The notes beneath the pieces were generated by a model. The model was not told where the DNA came from. It ran no database searches and was given only the letters and a program-made list of their open reading frames with translations. This document shows positions 17,940 to 21,557 of a DNA stretch of 64,000 bases, in pieces. Origin of the DNA: Candidatus Calditenuis fumarioli (lineage in GTDB: Archaea > Thermoproteota > Nitrososphaeria_A > Caldarchaeales > Calditenuaceae); contig JANVYR010000001.1 of NCBI GenBank assembly GCA_030059665.1, positions 608,001 through 672,000 on the forward strand. Direction: 5' to 3'. The first letter of the stretch is position 1; each line of letters starts with the position of its first letter. The position numbers and the translations under genes were made by a program.

Positions 17940-18362
17940 ATGGAAGGCGAGCTCAGACCCGAGATCGAGGACTGGTTCTATGAGGCCTGCGTCGACCTCG
18001 AGGAGGCGGAGGACGCCCTCAGCAGGGGAAGGAACAACTGGGCCTGCTTCGCAGCCCAGCAGGCCGCAGGGAAGGCCCTCAAGGCAGCGTACCTCGCGAT
18101 CAAGAGGAGGCGCTTCCCTAGGACCCACGACCTCCTCGAGCTTTACCTCGAGCTCCGGGGTGAGATCTCAGTCGGTGACGAGGGGAAGATCGGGCTCCTC
18201 TCGTCCTTCTACGAGCTGTCGAGATACCCCAACGCGGGCGTCAGGAGACCCTCCAGGTCGATCTCAAGCGACGTTGCCCGGGAAATGCTTAACCTCGCTA
18301 AGGAGGTAGTGAGGACGGTCGGTGAGAGGATTGGCCTCGCGTGCGGCCCCCAAACTCGGTGA
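17940..18362 (+). CDS. HEPN domain protein (toxin of HEPN-MNT pair)
   Basis: ACFAAQQAAGKALKA, Rx4H motif RFPRTH and RYPNA. Confidence 0.9.
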   Translation: MEGELRPEIEDWFYEACVDLEEAEDALSRGRNNWACFAAQQAAGKALKAAYLAIKRRRFPRTHDLLELYLELRGEISVGDEGKIGLLSSFYELSRYPNAGVRRPSRSISSDVAREMLNLAKEVVRTVGERIGLACGPQTR

Positions 18363-18690
18363 CCTCGGTTTGCCCGAAGACGTGAGGAGGAGGATCGAGA
18401 GGGCCGTCGAGGTGATCAGGAGCGTCGCGGCCGACGCGAGGGTTCTGCTCTTCGGGAGCTTCGCCCGAGGGGACTGGCTCGAGGAGAGCGACATCGACCT
18501 TCTGGTGATATCCGACGCGTTCGGGGGGATGAGCTACCTCGAAAGGCTCGAGAGGATAAAGAGGGCCCTTCTGGAGAACGGCCTCCCGAGGGTCCACGTG
18601 ATACCGCTGACGTGGGGCGAGCTTGAGGAATTGGGTGAGAGGAGCGTCGTGATCAGCGACGCGCCTGAGTATGCCGTGGAGGTGGTCTGA
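18322..18690 (+). CDS. minimal nucleotidyltransferase (MNT antitoxin)
   Basis: LFGSFARGDWLEESDIDLLV matches GSx10DxD; overlaps the HEPN gene. Confidence 0.9.
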   Translation: MRGLASRAAPKLGDLGLPEDVRRRIERAVEVIRSVAADARVLLFGSFARGDWLEESDIDLLVISDAFGGMSYLERLERIKRALLENGLPRVHVIPLTWGELEELGERSVVISDAPEYAVEVV

Positions 18691-18773
18691 TTCCGAGATC
18701 TTCTGCTGTGTTAGCCCTCAACTTTCCTCGCGAGAACGACGAGTTCAGCCGAGAAAACGCGAAATCTCCGTTG

Positions 18774-18875
18774 CGGGCCCGGTGGGACTCGAACCCACGA
18801 CCTTCCGGTTAACAGCCGGGCGTTGAAGATATTGGGGGAATACCCCAATATACTCTTCCGCTGAGCTACGGGCCC
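18774..18875 (-). tRNA. tRNA-Asn(GTT) with 30-nt non-canonical intron at 24/25 (intron 18823-18852)
   Basis: GGGCCCG acceptor stem, GCTC/GAGC D-stem after intron removal, loop CTGTTAA, GTGGG-TTCGAGT-CCCAC T-arm, G73; CCA not encoded and C27-A43 mismatch. Intron has central helix GAAG/CTTC with 3-nt bulges AGT and AAC. Confidence 0.93.
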
Positions 18876-18900
18876 ACGTACTGATTATTTTCCATCTTAG

Positions 18901-18910
18901 CATTTAAACC
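18901..18910 (-). promoter_or_regulatory. TATA box for the intact tRNA-Asn gene, located inside the inserted element
   Basis: TTTAAA at 18903-18908, 28 nt upstream of the tRNA 5' end, in AT-rich context. Confidence 0.7.
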
Positions 18911-19055
18911 TTAGTAGACGAAAGAAGACACCGTTCGGATGAGCGTCAGCTCCGTCGATCTCTGCTCATCCTCATCGCTTACCGAAATCACATGATTAAC
19001 TCGATGATAAGAAAGGGAGTGATTTCAGTTAGCAGATGGTTGTCAGTATTGTTTA

Positions 19056-19168
19056 GGGGAGCCGGAATGAGGACCTCAGGCATTCGGCTGTTAATTGCTT
19101 CATCCCCCCTCGCGGTAGGTCTGCATTCGGCGCTCTATTGCCCAGGTCCCCATCCGGCTCTTTCCCCC
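19056..19168 (-). ncRNA. bridge/seek/tigRNA-like dual-guide RNA targeting intron-less tRNA-Asn DNA
   Basis: A ~17-bp stem encloses two GCAA-[9 nt]-GAAUGC units separated by a GCGA-capped hairpin. Guides are UAGAGCGCC (19129-37) and UUAACAGCC (19086-94). Confidence 0.88.
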
Positions 19169-19172
19169 GTTC

Positions 19173-19949
19173 TCACCTCTTCATCGCTTTTAGTGTATTC
19201 TTTACGGTTTTCAGGACCTCCCGCACCTCTTTGCCCTTGATCTTCTGCCTTCCCTTCACACTAATTGTCAGCGATTCTGTCGCATCTTTCAGCATTTTGT
19301 TGTACTTTCCGTCGTTCGGATAGTAGTTACCAGTATAGGTCAATATCTTCCTCAGCCCTAAGCTGAAGTCCACGTACAACAGCAGTTGGACCAAAGCTAC
19401 CCTGCCGTAGAGGCATTTGCCTGAGCTGATCCTCAATCTCTCCGATATCTGATGGATCGGTAGGAAGCTTCTCGCCAGTGCGTCTATCTCCCTGGCCAGC
19501 TTATCTTTCCGCCTCCTCAGGTGATTGATGAGATGTCTGTAGTGTGCCCTGGTCTCCTCATCGTCCGCTTCGCGTGACAGTTGCTTTACAAGTTTCAGGT
19601 GCGATTTCGTCGTCGTGTATTTGTGCAGAAGCCTTCTGACCTCCAGCTCCTTTCCTGTGAGCTCCCTGAAGAGGTGTTCCGGTATTCTAGCTAGGGCCCT
19701 GGCGTCGTCCTCGTCGCTCTTCGTCTCCCTGTACTTCTCTATGACATCAGTCCTCCTCAGGTAGAATATCCGGACGCCTCTAGCTAATAGCTCCTCGAAC
19801 TCCCTAAATCTGCTCGGTAGTATCGCATCCACGTACAGCTCGTCTCCGGCCTGAGCGGGTATGTCGCTGAGCTTCCTGAACCTCTTAACGACACCGTCGG
19901 CCACTACCACGTGATCCTTCCTCCAGTGGACGTCGGCGTAGATCTTCAT
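19173..19949 (-). CDS. IS110-family-like protein, 258 aa (RuvC-like N-domain, coiled coil, Tnp/Nop-like domain lacking the Ser-Gly loop)
   Basis: YADV, LYVDA and KSDEDDARALA give an acidic tetrad. A helical linker follows, then LRKILTYTG...KYNKMLK aligning to the IS110 C-terminal domain. Confidence 0.8.
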   Translation of the reverse strand: MKIYADVHWRKDHVVVADGVVKRFRKLSDIPAQAGDELYVDAILPSRFREFEELLARGVRIFYLRRTDVIEKYRETKSDEDDARALARIPEHLFRELTGKELEVRRLLHKYTTTKSHLKLVKQLSREADDEETRAHYRHLINHLRRRKDKLAREIDALARSFLPIHQISERLRISSGKCLYGRVALVQLLLYVDFSLGLRKILTYTGNYYPNDGKYNKMLKDATESLTISVKGRQKIKGKEVREVLKTVKNTLKAMKR

Positions 19950-20118
19950 ATCACATCACCTGCATAACCTGCATGAACGTCACCGTCAGCAAGTCATATG
20001 ATGGCGATCTATATCTGATCGTAATAGAGAAGGCAGGAGAAGCAGGGATTGATGTTAGGAACGTTGTGCGATATGTGTAGAGGATCGATCCTTCCATATC
20101 TCAAATTAACCTCCAACT

Positions 20119-20148
20119 CCGGGCGCTCTACCGCTGAGCTACGGGCCC
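20119..20148 (-). pseudogene. orphan intron-less 5' half of tRNA-Asn (left junction of the element)
   Basis: GGGCCCGTAGCTCAGCGGTAGAGCGCCCGG matches the spliced 5' half of the tRNA at 18774-18875 except for one base (T versus A in the D-loop). Confidence 0.9.
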
Positions 20149-20158
20149 TTCTCCGGGG

Positions 20159-20212
20159 GCTCCGCCAAGGCTGAACTCATCACCAAGCAGCATTCACCTC
20201 CCCGGTCATCGC
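20159..20212 (-). ncRNA. possible box C/D sRNA upstream of the original tRNA 5' half
   Basis: C-like GCGATGA, C' GTGATGA, 12-nt spacer GTTCAGCCTTGG and degenerate D box CGGA; no clean D' box. Confidence 0.3.
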
Positions 20213-20306
20213 CCCGTCAAGGACGAATCACCTATCACTTCAACTTAACCGTCCAAGCCAGGCAGGGGAACCGGTTTAAACCCGTAGGGCACAACGGGCT
20301 GCGGGA

Positions 20307-21557
20307 TTGGTCATCTACGCGGTGACGTGGGCGCAAACACCTGTTCACCACGCCCGCCACCACGACGTCATGCTCTCCGCCGCGAGGGCCTGGGGGAGGT
20401 TCGAGCTGCTCGTCGACCGATCGCCGGTCACGCCGGACGTCTTCGCGGAGGAGAAGCCCAGGTCTGCGGTAACGGTCCTGTACTCGGGCGAGAGGCCCGT
20501 CAAGGTCACGAGGCGCTCGGTGGTGGTCGAGCTTACGCCGAGGGCCGCGGAAAGCAGCGTTCGCGACCCCGAGTTCTTTCTGAGGGTTGAGGTCTGCGAA
20601 GACGGCATCCGTGTCGAGACCGACCACTTCTCCTCGGTTCCGGCACACGCGGTCCACTGCGGCGTCGCCTGCCTCCTCCCCTTCCCAACCAGTTCGGTTG
20701 GACCATTCCGTCTGATCCGCAGGCTGCCTCCGTTCACGTCGGCGAGGATCGACGCGGAGGGGCTCTTCACGGTCACCGAGAGGGCAGAGAACGTCGAGAA
20801 CGTCGTCAACCCTGAAGCTCTCCTGCAGGACCTCACCGAATCGATCTCGAGGAACGTGGGAAACAGGTGCGCGATCGCCTTCTCCGGAGGGCTCGACAGC
20901 GCGGTCCTGCTCTCGCTCATCGCCTCTACCGGGAGGAAGGTGCTCGCGGTGACGGTCGGGATGAGGGGGTCGGAGGACGTGAGGAGGTCGACCGCTGTGG
21001 CTATGGAGATGGGGGCAGATCACGTGGTCTGCGAGCTGGACGAAGAGGAGGTGCGAGACCTCTCCGCTTACCTGAAGCGCGTCCTTGACCTCCGGAGGCC
21101 CATGGACCTCGCTCTGGGAGTCATCTTCCACAGGGTCGCGCTCGAGTCGGCGAGGAACGGGTTCAGGCAGCTGATCTCCGGACAGGGAGCCGATGAGCTC
21201 TTCGGGGGATACGCGAAGTACCTCAGGGCCTACAGGCAGCACGGACCGCGCGGCGCGGAGCTGGAGATGCTCAGTGACCTCGAGGAGCTCTGGGGGTGGG
21301 GGATCGTGAGGGACTTCAACGCCGCGGCCCTCGGAGGCTGCCACCTCACGCTGCCGTACCTGAGCAGGAGGGTGATCGCCCGTGCCCTCTCGGCGGGGAC
21401 GGAGCTGAAGGTCGACGGCCAGCGAAGGAAGCTCTTGCTGAGGGCCATCGCCCGTGAGCTCGGCCTACCGGGTTCCGTCGTGGAGGGTGAGAAGAAGGCG
21501 GCGCAGTACGGGAGCAAAGTCGAGCGGGCGGTGAGGAAGGTCCTCGGGATGAAATGA
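20307..21557 (+). CDS. asparagine synthetase-like ATP pyrophosphatase (no N-terminal catalytic Cys)
   Basis: PP-loop AFSGGLDS, SGQGADELFGGY and KKAAQYGS motifs. Confidence 0.85.
   Translation: MVIYAVTWAQTPVHHARHHDVMLSAARAWGRFELLVDRSPVTPDVFAEEKPRSAVTVLYSGERPVKVTRRSVVVELTPRAAESSVRDPEFFLRVEVCEDGIRVETDHFSSVPAHAVHCGVACLLPFPTSSVGPFRLIRRLPPFTSARIDAEGLFTVTERAENVENVVNPEALLQDLTESISRNVGNRCAIAFSGGLDSAVLLSLIASTGRKVLAVTVGMRGSEDVRRSTAVAMEMGADHVVCELDEEEVRDLSAYLKRVLDLRRPMDLALGVIFHRVALESARNGFRQLISGQGADELFGGYAKYLRAYRQHGPRGAELEMLSDLEELWGWGIVRDFNAAALGGCHLTLPYLSRRVIARALSAGTELKVDGQRRKLLLRAIARELGLPGSVVEGEKKAAQYGSKVERAVRKVLGMK

Follow-up and report, generated by a model that had tools for sequence, protein, structure and literature searches.

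The element analysed here belongs to a family represented in a 2012 report (Sugahara et al., PMC3293823) by a 1.87-kb insertion in the tRNA-Thr(GGU) gene of Caldiarchaeum subterraneum, for which a pNOB8-type plasmid origin was favoured. That report described an orphan 5′ tRNA fragment, an intron delivered by the element at tRNA position 24/25, and rearrangements between copies, all of which are shared with the present locus, and it cited the idea of Randau and Soll that introns protect tRNA genes from integration. The 270-aa ORF 'b' of the 2012 element (P0005; UniRef H1UCX7) is 43–45% identical to the protein of the present element. No RNA, guide-target match or fold assignment was given in 2012, whereas the homologous RNA of that element (L009/L039) is found here to carry Thr(GGU) guides. 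We found no published description of the guide RNA or of the protein fold in the literature. To the element already described, the present analysis adds a candidate guide RNA and a proposed RNA-guided mechanism.

IS110/IS1111 elements such as IS621 and ISCro4 encode proteins of about 300–460 aa with a RuvC-like domain, a coiled coil, and a helical RNA-binding domain, and they use an RNA with two loops, one of which binds the donor. In the target-binding loop of IS621, the 5′ strand pairs with the bottom-left and the 3′ strand with the top-right of the target (PMC11208160). TIGR-Tas systems (TasR with its stem-loop tigRNAs) use Nop-domain proteins that dimerise through a coiled coil, some of them with a nuclease at the N-terminus, and carry pairs of 8–12-nt spacers in phage- or CPR-borne tandem arrays (repeat-spacer or stem-loop units) of unknown targets. 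The archaeal box C/D sRNP (Nop5, fibrillarin, and L7Ae) combines a Nop domain and a coiled-coil dimer with a pseudo-symmetric RNA in which each of two guides is followed by a short box, and tRNA sequences are read there as well; its RNA has C (RUGAUGA) and D (CUGA) boxes that form K-turns, and both of its guides are antisense to RNA targets. Nop5 does not come from any sampled archaeal IS110 clade and may derive from an extinct clade or from an older IS110 ancestor (PMC11213020). Homing endonuclease genes in archaeal rRNA and tRNA introns target the uninterrupted allele, destroy the site by insertion, and leave the host gene functional through bulge-helix-bulge splicing.

The window, which is the whole 64,000-nt stretch of DNA that was analysed, carries an element whose parts all lie on the minus strand (−) and are given below in the order in which that strand is read.

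20119 to 20148 (−): orphan 5′ fragment without intron, left from the original tRNA-Asn(GUU) gene (tRNA positions 1–31) and identical to the corresponding part of the intact gene in G026 and G027
20130 to 20122 (−): left half-site TAGAGCGCC, inside the orphan fragment
20125 to 20119 (−): left copy of the 7-bp repeat CGCCCGG, inside the orphan fragment
19950 to 20118 (−): left arm or leader of the element, low in G+C and differing in sequence from one family member to another (composition profile, junction reading, left-end comparison)
19173 to 19949 (−): gene for the 258-aa protein P0001 (alignment, structure model, profile search)
19050 to 19175 (−): dual-guide RNA gene (match to covariance model R1), overlapping the stop codon of the 258-aa gene
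19160 to 19144 with 19076 to 19059 (−): outer stem of the dual-guide RNA
19137 to 19129 (−): guide 1, UAGAGCGCC, on the 5′ strand of the internal loop
19119 to 19104 (−): central hairpin, beyond the inner stem UGC/GCA
19094 to 19086 (−): guide 2, UUAACAGCC, on the 3′ strand of the internal loop
18876 to 19049 (−): right arm, with a pyrimidine/T-rich tract 3′ of the RNA and then a TATA-like box
18910 to 18901 (−): archaeal TATA-like box GGTTTAAATG, ~25 nt upstream of the rebuilt tRNA
18853 to 18875 (−): element-borne replacement tRNA-Asn 5′ exon (positions 1–24), by comparison with the orphan copy
18823 to 18852 (−): 30-nt non-canonical intron at tRNA position 24/25 (bulge-helix-bulge layout; Rfam tRNA score of 47.2 bits across the insertion)
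18774 to 18822 (−): remainder of the tRNA-Asn gene, its 3′ part identical to that of G026
18822 to 18816 (−): right copy of CGCCCGG, of ambiguous origin (element or chromosome)
18817 to 18809 (−): right half-site GGCTGTTAA, within the original chromosomal 3′ part of the rebuilt tRNA

Structurally, the predicted RNA of ~115 nt has a fold energy of −54.2 kcal/mol (z = −4.66 relative to 200 shuffles) and is encoded directly behind the 258-aa ORF, whose stop codon is at 19175–19173. All strings quoted in a previous reading of this DNA, made from the letters alone, are located on the minus strand, and both guides occupy repeated GCAA-N9-GAAUGC frames on the two strands of one internal loop. In the RNA alignment, 93% of the cells in the scaffold helices are paired (30–50% when the partners are slid), and 13 scaffold pairs show double changes as opposed to 4–6 with slid partners. 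The pyrimidine/T-rich tract that follows the RNA is likely a terminator. In the two RNA libraries among four sequencing runs compared with the element there is no cover of 19050–19175, while one 154-nt contig is identical to the ORF at 19725–19877 and another contig spans the intron-containing tRNA; DNA carry-over is possible for both.

Guide 1 is identical at 9/9 positions to the left half-site in the orphan tRNA 5′ fragment, and guide 2 is the reverse complement of the right half-site, such that the two describe a 19-bp site in tRNA-Asn(GUU). The G at 19085, directly after guide 2, is complementary to the central C of the target. Guide 2 is thus effectively 10 nt long, with 10/10 complementarity to the anticodon arm of tRNA-Asn, and the central C, which had been taken as unpaired, has a partner. 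A 1303-bp insertion of low GC content divides the site within the window and places the half-sites 1.3 kb apart. The best contiguous match there has three mismatches because the intron interrupts the site. The uninterrupted 19-mer is found in the intron-less tRNA-Asn genes of two genomes of the same genus (G026 and G027), where the half-sites abut. The sequence-only reading was therefore right about the assignment of the two guides to their half-sites, and its 9+1+9 target is intact in these empty sites while not being contiguous in the window itself. Its estimate of a 1-in-1000 chance for each 9-mer was wrong for a sequence of this size, as ~0.5 random matches per 9-mer are expected on both strands of 64 kb. 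A chance match is excluded on other grounds, namely the adjacency of the half-sites in the empty site and the co-variation of the guides with the neighbouring tRNA described below. For none of the three guide pairs resident in this genome does an intact target remain there.

On the right side of the element, the TATA-like box is inferred to serve as a promoter for the rebuilt tRNA, and the same box precedes the rebuilt tRNA in both paralogous elements of this genome. The replacement 5′ exon differs from the orphan copy by one D-loop base (A for T). The intron, whose delivery by the element was reported in PMC3293823, parts positions 1–5 of the guide-1 target from positions 6–9 in the DNA, and introns of the same family occur in the two paralogues and, across four related genomes, in 13 tRNA genes. 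ARAGORN detected no tRNA in the window, owing to the intron, whereas Rfam did find it. The CGCCCGG repeat was considered as a target-site duplication and rejected, since the length of the corresponding repeat varies from 6 to 9 nt across elements and no such repeat exists in the IS-like copies described below. We read it as a portion of the tRNA that the element must carry.

The 258-aa protein is composed of a RuvC-like N-terminal domain, a coiled coil (about residues 99–159), and an all-helical Nop-like C-terminal domain. Its AF2 model (pLDDT 95.9, pTM 0.91) is matched best by TasR (Z 14.8 over 239 residues), followed by the Nop domain of TasH (13.4, rmsd 2.8 A), ISCro4 (13.0), and IS621 (12.9), the last two over the whole length, whereas the match to Nop5 is weaker (7.3–8.0). 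A profile search also matched TasH (E 5.8e-5). Among solved structures, the profile of the N-terminal domain alone found no relative by sequence. The RuvC-like residues are D6, D41, K77, D79, and D82 (motif KSDEDDA), and the IS110-like form KSDxxDA is present in the family alignment. D6, K77, and D82 are invariant in an alignment of 20 N-terminal segments (A6). In an alignment of 30 proteins (A3), only K77 and D82 are strictly invariant, with D6 and D41 in ≥90% of the members, and the largest tRNA-directed clade has A, T, or H in place of the third acidic residue, D79. Pfam IS110 models remain below threshold: the N-terminal model PF01548 matches 5 of 30 members (best E 0.0098) and PF02371 matches none in the family, whereas canonical IS110 genes of the same class do match the latter. 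With hhalign, a residue-level alignment to one canonical archaeal IS110 protein did not succeed (probability 2.8%).

A homodimer joined through the coiled coil is predicted with an ipSAE of 0.68 (best control 0.00), a pLDDT of 88, and agreement between runs in 100% of contacts. Of 30 solved homodimers, 20 attained this mark, as did 1 of 23 monomers, and the score may stem from the likeness of the model to solved TasR and Nop5 dimers.

There are 28 homologous RNAs in 10 Caldarchaeales genomes, with the scaffold kept and with guides for 15 tRNA anticodons. The alignments of three RNA subfamilies contain only two variable 9-nt windows, and guides are exchanged as exact units against a nearly invariant scaffold. 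Two paralogues with protein identities of 87% and 75%, both from this genome, retain the scaffold and carry guides for tRNA-Thr(GGU) and tRNA-Lys(UUU), and each adjoins its own cognate tRNA gene. The expected reprogrammability by guide exchange has therefore already taken place in nature. A cognate tRNA sequence, defined as the reverse complement of guide 2 with ≤1 mismatch in 9, lies 100–330 nt downstream in 19 of the 24 testable copies (18 full tRNA genes, and a 3′ half only in L041). Among 21 non-redundant relatives, the mean guide-tRNA fit is 12.5/14 for cognate and 9.6/14 for non-cognate pairs, and none of 100,000 permutations reached the observed sum. In addition, guide 1 tracks the original chromosomal 5′ half over the element-borne one (9/10 versus about 6/10 in L010, 10/10 versus 7/10 in L055, and 8/10 versus 7/10 in L043).

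Some copies depart from this rule. The guides of L049 and L040 do not fit the adjacent tRNA and those of L095 have one mismatch; the genes of these three, where present, are broken or truncated at the end of a contig. Around L042 and L057 no tRNA lies within 520 nt, and a fourth paralogue in the present genome (35% identical) has candidate guides without a flank match.

A sister subfamily of IS-like copies extends the rule to sites outside tRNA genes. These elements are inserted exactly between the half-sites without target duplication, and their flanks are non-tRNA sequences that match their own guides (9/9 and 9/9 for L067; 8/9 and 9/9 for L073 and L074). Right-flank matches occur with cognate guides in 5 of 18 cases and with non-cognate guides in 11 of 304. 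An empty site of L067 was not found; the intergenic DNA is not conserved in sister genomes.

Together these data indicate that the RNA very probably guides the choice of a DNA target. DNA is likely the target rather than tRNA because guide 1 is sense to the tRNA and because the guides of the sister subfamily match non-tRNA flanks. The antisense relation of guide 2 to the anticodon loop that was pointed out earlier holds for every tRNA-directed member. An RNA-level function, by which a box C/D-like or antisense RNA would pair with the anticodon arm of the tRNA or its precursor to modify, process, or regulate it while the DNA match is incidental, could draw on this antisense relation and on the Nop-type domain with its similarity to Nop5. 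We judge it to be very improbable. Guide 1 could not pair with tRNA at all, C/D boxes and a K-turn are absent, and it is the displaced chromosomal copy, not the expressed tRNA, that the guides fit. Furthermore, the protein retains D6 and D41 in ≥90% of members and an invariant D82 (D79 varies), whereas the RuvC active site of Nop5 is lost. Archaeal C/D sRNA families in Rfam give sub-threshold matches of 13–19 bits (gathering scores 36–55), which is the level of chance, and the non-tRNA targets of the sister elements also speak against such a function.

The arrangement of the guides recalls two known systems, as had been recognized before. As reported for IS621, the 5′ strand of the loop is directed to the bottom-left of the target and the 3′ strand to its top-right. 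Like IS110/IS1111 elements, this one encodes a protein with the KxDxxDA motif, a RuvC-like domain, a coiled coil, and a helical domain, and inserts between half-sites without duplication; as in the IS1111 group, the RNA is encoded within the element on the 3′ side of the gene. In contrast to IS110/IS1111, there is one loop rather than two, the donor-binding loop being absent, and the guides are symmetric (9–10 nt) instead of 8–9 plus 4–7 nt. A core dinucleotide covered by both guides is not consistently apparent: their overlap at the target centre varies from 0 to 2 nt across the family, and the exchange is mapped to within tRNA positions 26–30. The protein is smaller, does not reach the thresholds of the Pfam IS110 models, and lacks the catalytic serine and beta sheet. 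Unlike IS110/IS1111 elements, the present element has unconserved ends and carries a tRNA half with an intron.

Similarity to TIGR-Tas is found in the best structural match, the predicted coiled-coil dimer, and, at the sequence level, two spacers flanked by box-like motifs and directed to opposite DNA strands. Equal guides of 9–10 nt in repeated box-like frames with a symmetric dimer have their counterpart in tigRNA and box C/D systems (PMC12045711), the 1-bp gap between half-sites is within the tolerance of TasR, and no flanking motif is apparent. The differences are that the element holds a single unit and no tandem array, that the guide fits the site of the element's own insertion in its empty form, that the system and the mobile element are one and the same, and that the acidic motif looks IS110-like. 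Given the model matches to TasR, TasH, ISCro4, and IS621, the earlier description of an intermediate type is a fair one.

We propose, as a reading that falls a little short of even probability, that this stretch of the window encodes the single-unit guide RNA of a 1.3-kb tRNA-gene mobile element of Caldarchaeales (Aigarchaeota) whose insertion is catalysed by the ribonucleoprotein. The long RNA stem would open into one pseudo-symmetric internal loop held by a dimer of the 258-aa protein. One box-like frame (GCRAU ... AAYGC) would be bound per protomer, and the guides would jointly read 19 bp. Breakage and joining might occur where the two heteroduplexes meet, in a recombinase- or transposase-like reaction that is independent of serine, and the element would thereby land inside the tRNA gene. 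The element would supply a promoter, a new tRNA 5′ half, and the intron at 24/25, and the host splicing endonuclease would remove the intron so that the tRNA still works. Since the occupied allele has its left half-site divided and no right half-site in the orphan fragment, it should no longer be a target. The expression and binding of the RNA, the stoichiometry of the dimer, and the chemistry are inferred. Sequences and models directly show that guides match their targets and co-vary with them, and they also show the empty site, the architecture, and the fold.

Strand exchange by the particle itself is the reading that we adopt, at slightly less than even odds, and several observations speak against it. 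Across the 30 aligned members, no Ser, Thr, or Tyr of the C-terminal domain is conserved, and beta strands are absent from the model beyond residue 97, where IS110 enzymes depend on a serine carried by a beta sheet. There is one guide loop and no donor-binding loop, the ends are not conserved even between copies that are 80–90% identical, and D79 is replaced in the largest tRNA-directed clade. The donor junctions have in common with the target only 6–8 nt that the tRNA requires in any case, and in four tRNA-type elements only tRNA positions 25–30/31 are shared. The possibility that the same loop also reads the donor was rejected, as only these required positions are common and nothing consistent was found in the IS-like copies.

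Paired-frame loci number only three in the genome, each in a different element, and the covariance model finds one RNA copy per locus. No further guide loop with this type of frame was found elsewhere in the three elements or in the genome, and no tandem repeats beyond three 9-nt duplets are present in 18000–21000. A circular or tandem donor junction (right end plus left end, 24 nt) was not found in the assembled metagenome contigs. A further pattern scan yielded matches in genome contigs only from Caldarchaeum/Nitrososphaerota MAGs and none in viral contigs. Apparent 'joints' across the element in the sequencing runs come from tRNA genes of other organisms and do not represent empty sites.

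The strongest competitor is an RNA-guided homing endonuclease, which we consider possible and rather doubtful. In this case the particle would only cut the empty allele, with a TasR-like stagger near the fifth guide base, and recombinational repair by the host would copy the whole insertion from an occupied allele, which is itself shielded by the intron and the split site. As with homing endonuclease genes, the uninterrupted allele is targeted, the insertion destroys the site, and the host gene is kept functional by splicing; the element differs from them in its RNA-guided recognition, in having its gene outside the 30-nt intron, and in replacing the tRNA 5′ half. The best structural match is to a nuclease, TasR, with TasH similar in the Nop domain, no serine element is present, one loop would be enough for a nuclease, no donor loop was found, and the ends of the element are not conserved. 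The guide of each copy matches the empty form of its own locus, and the intron lies at the guide-1 5|6 boundary, which is the cutting register of TasR (PMC12045711). Solo-intron tRNA genes without an element (L090 and L091) are expected from partial conversion tracts, but they are equally explained by deletion between two direct tRNA 5′ halves. Homing would not reach new loci that lack flanking homology, yet the family, with guides that fit, occupies tRNA genes of ≥15 kinds and, in a single genome, many unrelated sites. The IS-like insertions exactly between half-sites, with no duplication or loss, would also not result from the capture of staggered breaks.

That the 9-mers are instead passive remnants of tRNA-derived attachment DNA, moved by a protein-only integrase of pNOB8-like origin as proposed in PMC3293823, draws on how common tRNA-derived att sequences are in integrative elements and is most unlikely: the 9-mers sit in conserved repeated frames of a co-varying RNA structure, one sense and one antisense, they swap as exact units in a nearly invariant scaffold, the same guide-flank rule applies at non-tRNA sites, and, unlike tyrosine-integrase elements of the pNOB8/SSV type, the only gene of the element has no integrase family match and encodes a protein with the RuvC-Nop fold known from RNA-guided enzymes.

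If the ribonucleoprotein itself catalyses insertion, this would have a wider meaning. We advance, with less than even confidence, the view that the element represents a minimal single-loop, serine-independent RNA-guided insertion system, in which a dimer of the 258-aa protein and a ~115-nt RNA read 19 bp on both strands and insert the element's DNA where the two guides meet, which is intermediate between IS110, TIGR-Tas, and Nop5-box C/D systems, and which seeds tRNA introns and split halves. An archaeal and apparently catalytic protein of predicted RuvC-Nop fold with a single C/D-like dual guide would stand between IS110, TIGR-Tas, and Nop5. For an element known since 2012 without a mechanism, RNA-guided recognition of tRNA genes becomes a concrete and testable proposal. 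The intron that the element delivers at the very spot that breaks the target of its own guide bears on the intron-protection idea. With 258 aa plus about 115 nt, 19-bp recognition, natural retargeting to at least 15 sequences, and no apparent flanking motif, the particle is also a candidate from which a programmable tool of very small size for DNA targeting could be made.

The origin of non-canonical introns and of disrupted or split archaeal tRNA genes becomes directly testable as well, since apparent decay products of the element are visible in genomes as solo-intron tRNAs, orphan halves, and a possible split tRNA. One natural deletion, in L102, which joins an orphan tRNA fragment to the RNA gene exactly at guide 1, counts in favour of the proposed explanation.

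The element carries a structured RNA with two exchangeable segments of 9-10 nt, and these correspond exactly to the two strands of the empty site into which the element was inserted. The RNA opens at the stop codon of the gene for P0001, the 258-aa protein of the element.

Features of the element and its insertion site in the window.
20148->20119, minus strand: orphan intron-less tRNA-Asn copy, first 31 nt, upstream of the ORF
19949->19173, minus strand: 258-aa ORF, whose TGA stop opens the RNA feature
19175->19050, minus strand: dual-guide RNA feature, with its 5' end at the TGA stop of the ORF
19160->19144 paired with 19076->19059, minus strand: outer stem of the RNA, lengthened by GGGG/CCCC and leading into an internal loop
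18875->18774, minus strand: tRNA-Asn(GUU) with a 30-nt insertion at position 24/25 (Rfam, 47.2 bits)

A sequence-only reading had proposed a dual-guide RNA at 19056-19168. Its strings and coordinates are correct, are found on the minus strand, and belong to an RNA whose folding energy (-54.2 kcal/mol, z = -4.66) makes it much more stable than shuffled sequences. Guide 1 (g1) is the 5ˊ strand of the internal loop, A-UAGAGCGCC-GAA, and guide 2 (g2) is the 3ˊ strand, A-UUAACAGCC-GAA, both within a common GCAA-N9-GAAUGC frame. The inner stem is closed by UGC on the 3ˊ side of g1 and GCA on the 5ˊ side of g2, and has a small hairpin on top.

Positions 20130->20122 of the orphan fragment are identical to g1, and the reverse complement of g2 is found at 18817->18809 in the anticodon arm of tRNA-Asn, which agrees with the earlier assignment of the guides to the left half-site and to the reverse complement of the right one. 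The central C of the target had been described as unpaired, but the G that follows g2 pairs with it. The orphan fragment ends in TAGAGCGCC-C-GG and gives way to unrelated low-GC DNA, and the composition of the window changes from ~0.63 to ~0.50 G+C between roughly 18.88 and 20.2 kb. ARAGORN missed the tRNA-Asn(GUU) when applied to the window. The proposed 19-bp target is split there between the orphan fragment and the tRNA, and the best contiguous match to the 19-mer has three mismatches because the intron intervenes. The target is uninterrupted in two element-free genomes of the same genus. In one of these (G026), the left flank is homologous (73% identity) and leads into an intact, intron-less tRNA-Asn that contains TAGAGCGCC-C-GGCTGTTAA without interruption and has a 3ˊ half identical to that in the window. 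The other (G027) has the same uninterrupted tRNA-Asn site. These empty sites are the decisive control. The window allele is the empty allele with 1303 bp added (18816-20118). One copy of a 7-bp direct repeat, CGCCCGG, is part of the addition, and insertion rebuilds the tRNA with an intron that interrupts the target.

None of the three resident guides has an intact target left in the genome, where the nearest sequences are other tRNA genes with two mismatches. The genes for tRNA-Lys(CUU) at C1:493521 and tRNA-Tyr at C1:588653 each differ from the Asn 19-bp target at two bases, in or beside the anticodon, and represent natural near-cognate sites. Also in the window, a pair of overlapping small ORFs (140 and 122 aa) occupies 17940-18690 of the plus strand between rpoP-like DNA and the tRNA, and a sediment metatranscriptome library includes a 154-nt contig identical to 19725-19877, possibly through DNA carry-over.

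The genome encodes four paralogues of P0001. Two are close (87% and 75% identity), and the same RNA scaffold lies 3ˊ of each (mean column identity 91%). The loop strands of the first element, E2, are UAGAGCACC and UUACCAAGC, and it adjoins tRNA-Thr(GGU). Those of the second, E3, are AAGAGCGAC and UUAAAAGCC, and it adjoins tRNA-Lys(UUU). Both tRNA genes carry an intron of the kind seen in the tRNA-Asn of the window. Searching with a covariance model of this genome's three RNAs yielded 25 copies in 10 of the 76 genomes of the class, or 28 with loci fetched via the protein. In all tRNA-directed copies g2 reads antisense to a canonical anticodon stem-loop, placing A against U33 and G against C32, so that the antisense relationship noted earlier for the window extends to the entire group. 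The guides represent 15 anticodons (Asn; Thr; Lys UUU and CUU; Met; Ala UGC and GGC; Glu; Tyr; Arg GCG, CCU, UCG and CCG; Leu CAG and CAA).

The reverse complement of g2 occurs with at most one mismatch in 9 in a tRNA sequence 100-330 nt downstream for 19 of the 24 testable copies. Most of these tRNAs have the 24/25 intron, and one locus (L041) has a tRNA 3ˊ half only. When 14-nt queries, each joining the 3ˊ part of g1 to the g2 reverse complement, were scored against all downstream windows of 21 non-redundant elements, the cognate mean was 12.5/14 versus 9.6/14 for non-cognate pairs, and the observed sum was reached in 0 of 100,000 permutations. The scaffold helices are supported by comparative analysis, with 93% of cells paired versus 30-50% with slid partners and double changes in 13 pairs versus 4-6 when slid, both counts coming from an alignment that was fitted to the model. 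These comparisons indicate that guides are exchanged in nature on a kept scaffold, consistent with the prediction that the guide is reprogrammable by a swap.

Individual paralogues have peculiarities. E2 (L002, C1:755421-759191) has no orphan tRNA-Thr 5ˊ fragment in the 900 nt upstream, and its left part lies directly against high-GC coding DNA. The missing fragment recalls C. subterraneum, where fragment and tRNA are reported to lie >500 kb apart, and the layout suggests a rearrangement between element copies. At E3 (L003, C2:490671-494414), positions 27 and 29 of the anticodon stem are not the same in the orphan Lys fragment and the rebuilt tRNA, and the fragment misfits the present 3ˊ half; fragment and rebuilt gene probably do not come from one original gene. 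The rebuilt tRNA-Lys has an additional intron at the canonical position. The fourth paralogue (L004, C1:325111-325800, minus strand) is 35% identical and has a different GC-rich structured region ~170 nt past its stop. Its 180-nt downstream stretch folds at -83 kcal/mol, and two candidate 9-nt loop segments gave no match in the flanks.

Four elements reveal which tRNA copy g1 follows.

Matches of g1 to the two tRNA copies.
L010 (Leu): displaced original 9/10, element-borne ~6/10
L055 (Arg(CCU)): displaced original 10/10, element-borne 7/10
L043 (Met): displaced original 8/10, including a diagnostic T, element-borne 7/10
Window: displaced original 9/9, element-borne 8/9

Where the copies differ, g1 fits the displaced original, and therefore the RNA describes the empty site and not the rebuilt gene. 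When left and right junctions were compared in four elements, the exchange could be narrowed to tRNA positions 26-30, with the g1|g2 boundary inside. The intron falls inside the g1 target in all elements, mostly at the 5|6 boundary; in L010 it lies two bases nearer the 5ˊ end.

A sister subfamily behaves like an insertion sequence. Genome G033 carries the protein gene ~35 times, and 12 fetched copies (78-96% DNA identity) have a different but analogous RNA after the stop, with GGGCU-N9-UAAUC twice around a hairpin and only the two 9-nt windows hypervariable. At one copy (L067), the left flank ends in g1 (9/9) and the right flank, ~1.5 kb away, starts with the g2 reverse complement (9/9); two others (L073, L074) match at 8/9 and 9/9. 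Right-flank matches were found for cognate guides in 5/18 elements versus 11/304 for non-cognate guides. These copies exhibit no target duplication, and their terminal sequences are not conserved. Other protein branches have further RNA subfamilies of the same plan.

P0001 matched no family in Pfam or NCBIfam, and its relatives comprise only 81 cluster representatives among 1.84 billion proteins, which according to record titles come from hot-spring MAGs of Candidatus Caldarchaeum and Nitrososphaerota. The family is present in 29 of the 76 genomes of the class, some with 20-35 matches. In a 30-member alignment K77 and D82 are invariant, at least 90% of members have D6, D18, D41, R74 and Y111, and the C-terminal domain has no conserved serine; the KSDxxDA motif recalls IS110. 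The AlphaFold model (pLDDT 95.9, pTM 0.91) predicts a RuvC-coiled coil-Nop fold, with a mixed alpha/beta N-terminal domain, two long helices, an all-helical C-terminal domain, and no beta strand after residue 97. Its best structural match is TasR (Z 14.8, 239 residues; Foldseek, VIA-align), followed by the TasH Nop domain (Z 13.4, rmsd 2.8 A), ISCro4 (13.0) and IS621 (12.9), with Nop5 lower (Z 7.3-8.0). A sequence profile of the family also reaches TasH (E 5.8e-5). In IS110 enzymes the catalytic serine sits on a beta sheet that is missing from Nop5 and Prp31 (PMC11213020), and the P0001 family lacks it as well. A homodimer is predicted through residues 110-147 (ipSAE 0.68 versus 0.00 for the best control; pLDDT 88; 100% contact agreement between runs), meeting a mark reached by 20/30 solved homodimers and 1/23 monomers, a pass that may be owed to likeness to solved TasR/Nop5 dimers.

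To our knowledge, the RuvC-coiled coil-Nop fold is common to all known enzymes using such dual guides. RNA-guided choice of the DNA target is very probable. One RNA would be held by a protein dimer, and the particle would unwind 19 bp so that g1 pairs bottom-left and g2 top-right of the target, a geometry reported for the target-binding loop of IS621 (PMC11208160) and for TasR (PMC12045711). We propose only tentatively, at slightly under even confidence, that the particle itself catalyses insertion, as suggested by the position of the element exactly at the guide boundary without duplication, the many unrelated sites reached with fitting guides, and the IS110-like acidic motif. Nuclease-driven homing is somewhat less likely; the top rank of TasR among the structural matches, the lack of a serine, donor loop and conserved ends, and a homing logic with immunity through interruption of the target would favour it.

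An account of the element was published in 2012 (PMC3293823): a 1868-bp insertion in tRNA-Thr(GGU) of C. subterraneum, with an ORF that belonged to no known family and an intron brought in at 24/25. That account included neither an RNA nor a mechanism. The RNA of that element has Thr guides. A single-unit, tRNA-directed, mobile member is absent from the IS110 paper, the TIGR-Tas papers of 2025-2026, the IS110/Nop5 evolution preprint and a 2026 non-coding RNA survey. We place the family as a variant within the Nop-domain RNA-guided DNA systems. Membership in IS110 was rejected because the serine and the second loop are both absent, and membership in TIGR-Tas because there is no array.

Decay products of the family also occur. 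The family intron occurs in 13 tRNA genes of four related genomes, compared with 0 for reversed-pattern controls. In the 1.5 kb upstream of two solo introns, one in a tRNA-Asn (L090, G005:C19) and one in a tRNA-Arg (L091, G006:C10), there is neither a protein gene nor a guide RNA; these introns were left behind or copied alone. At L097 the RNA is retained and the gene is absent. At L102 (G007:C50:4880-7904), an orphan tRNA-Arg 5ˊ fragment is joined to the second RNA half exactly at g1, with loss of the protein gene and of the RNA's first half, which is the expected outcome of recombination between the two identical 10-mers. Recombination between elements was inferred earlier by Sugahara et al. 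(PMC3293823). Guides misfit the adjacent tRNA in three copies (L049, L040 and, by one base, L095), whose genes are either broken or truncated where the contig ends. L048 (G006:C39:16248-18171) has a Lys-guide RNA and a degraded protein gene beside a tRNA-Lys that lacks the 24/25 intron and is two positions off the guide-defined target. L041 (G007:C1:102148-103930) has Ala(UGC) guides and, at +334 nt, an apparent tRNA-Ala(CGC) 3ˊ half preceded by non-tRNA sequence, which is a candidate split tRNA half.
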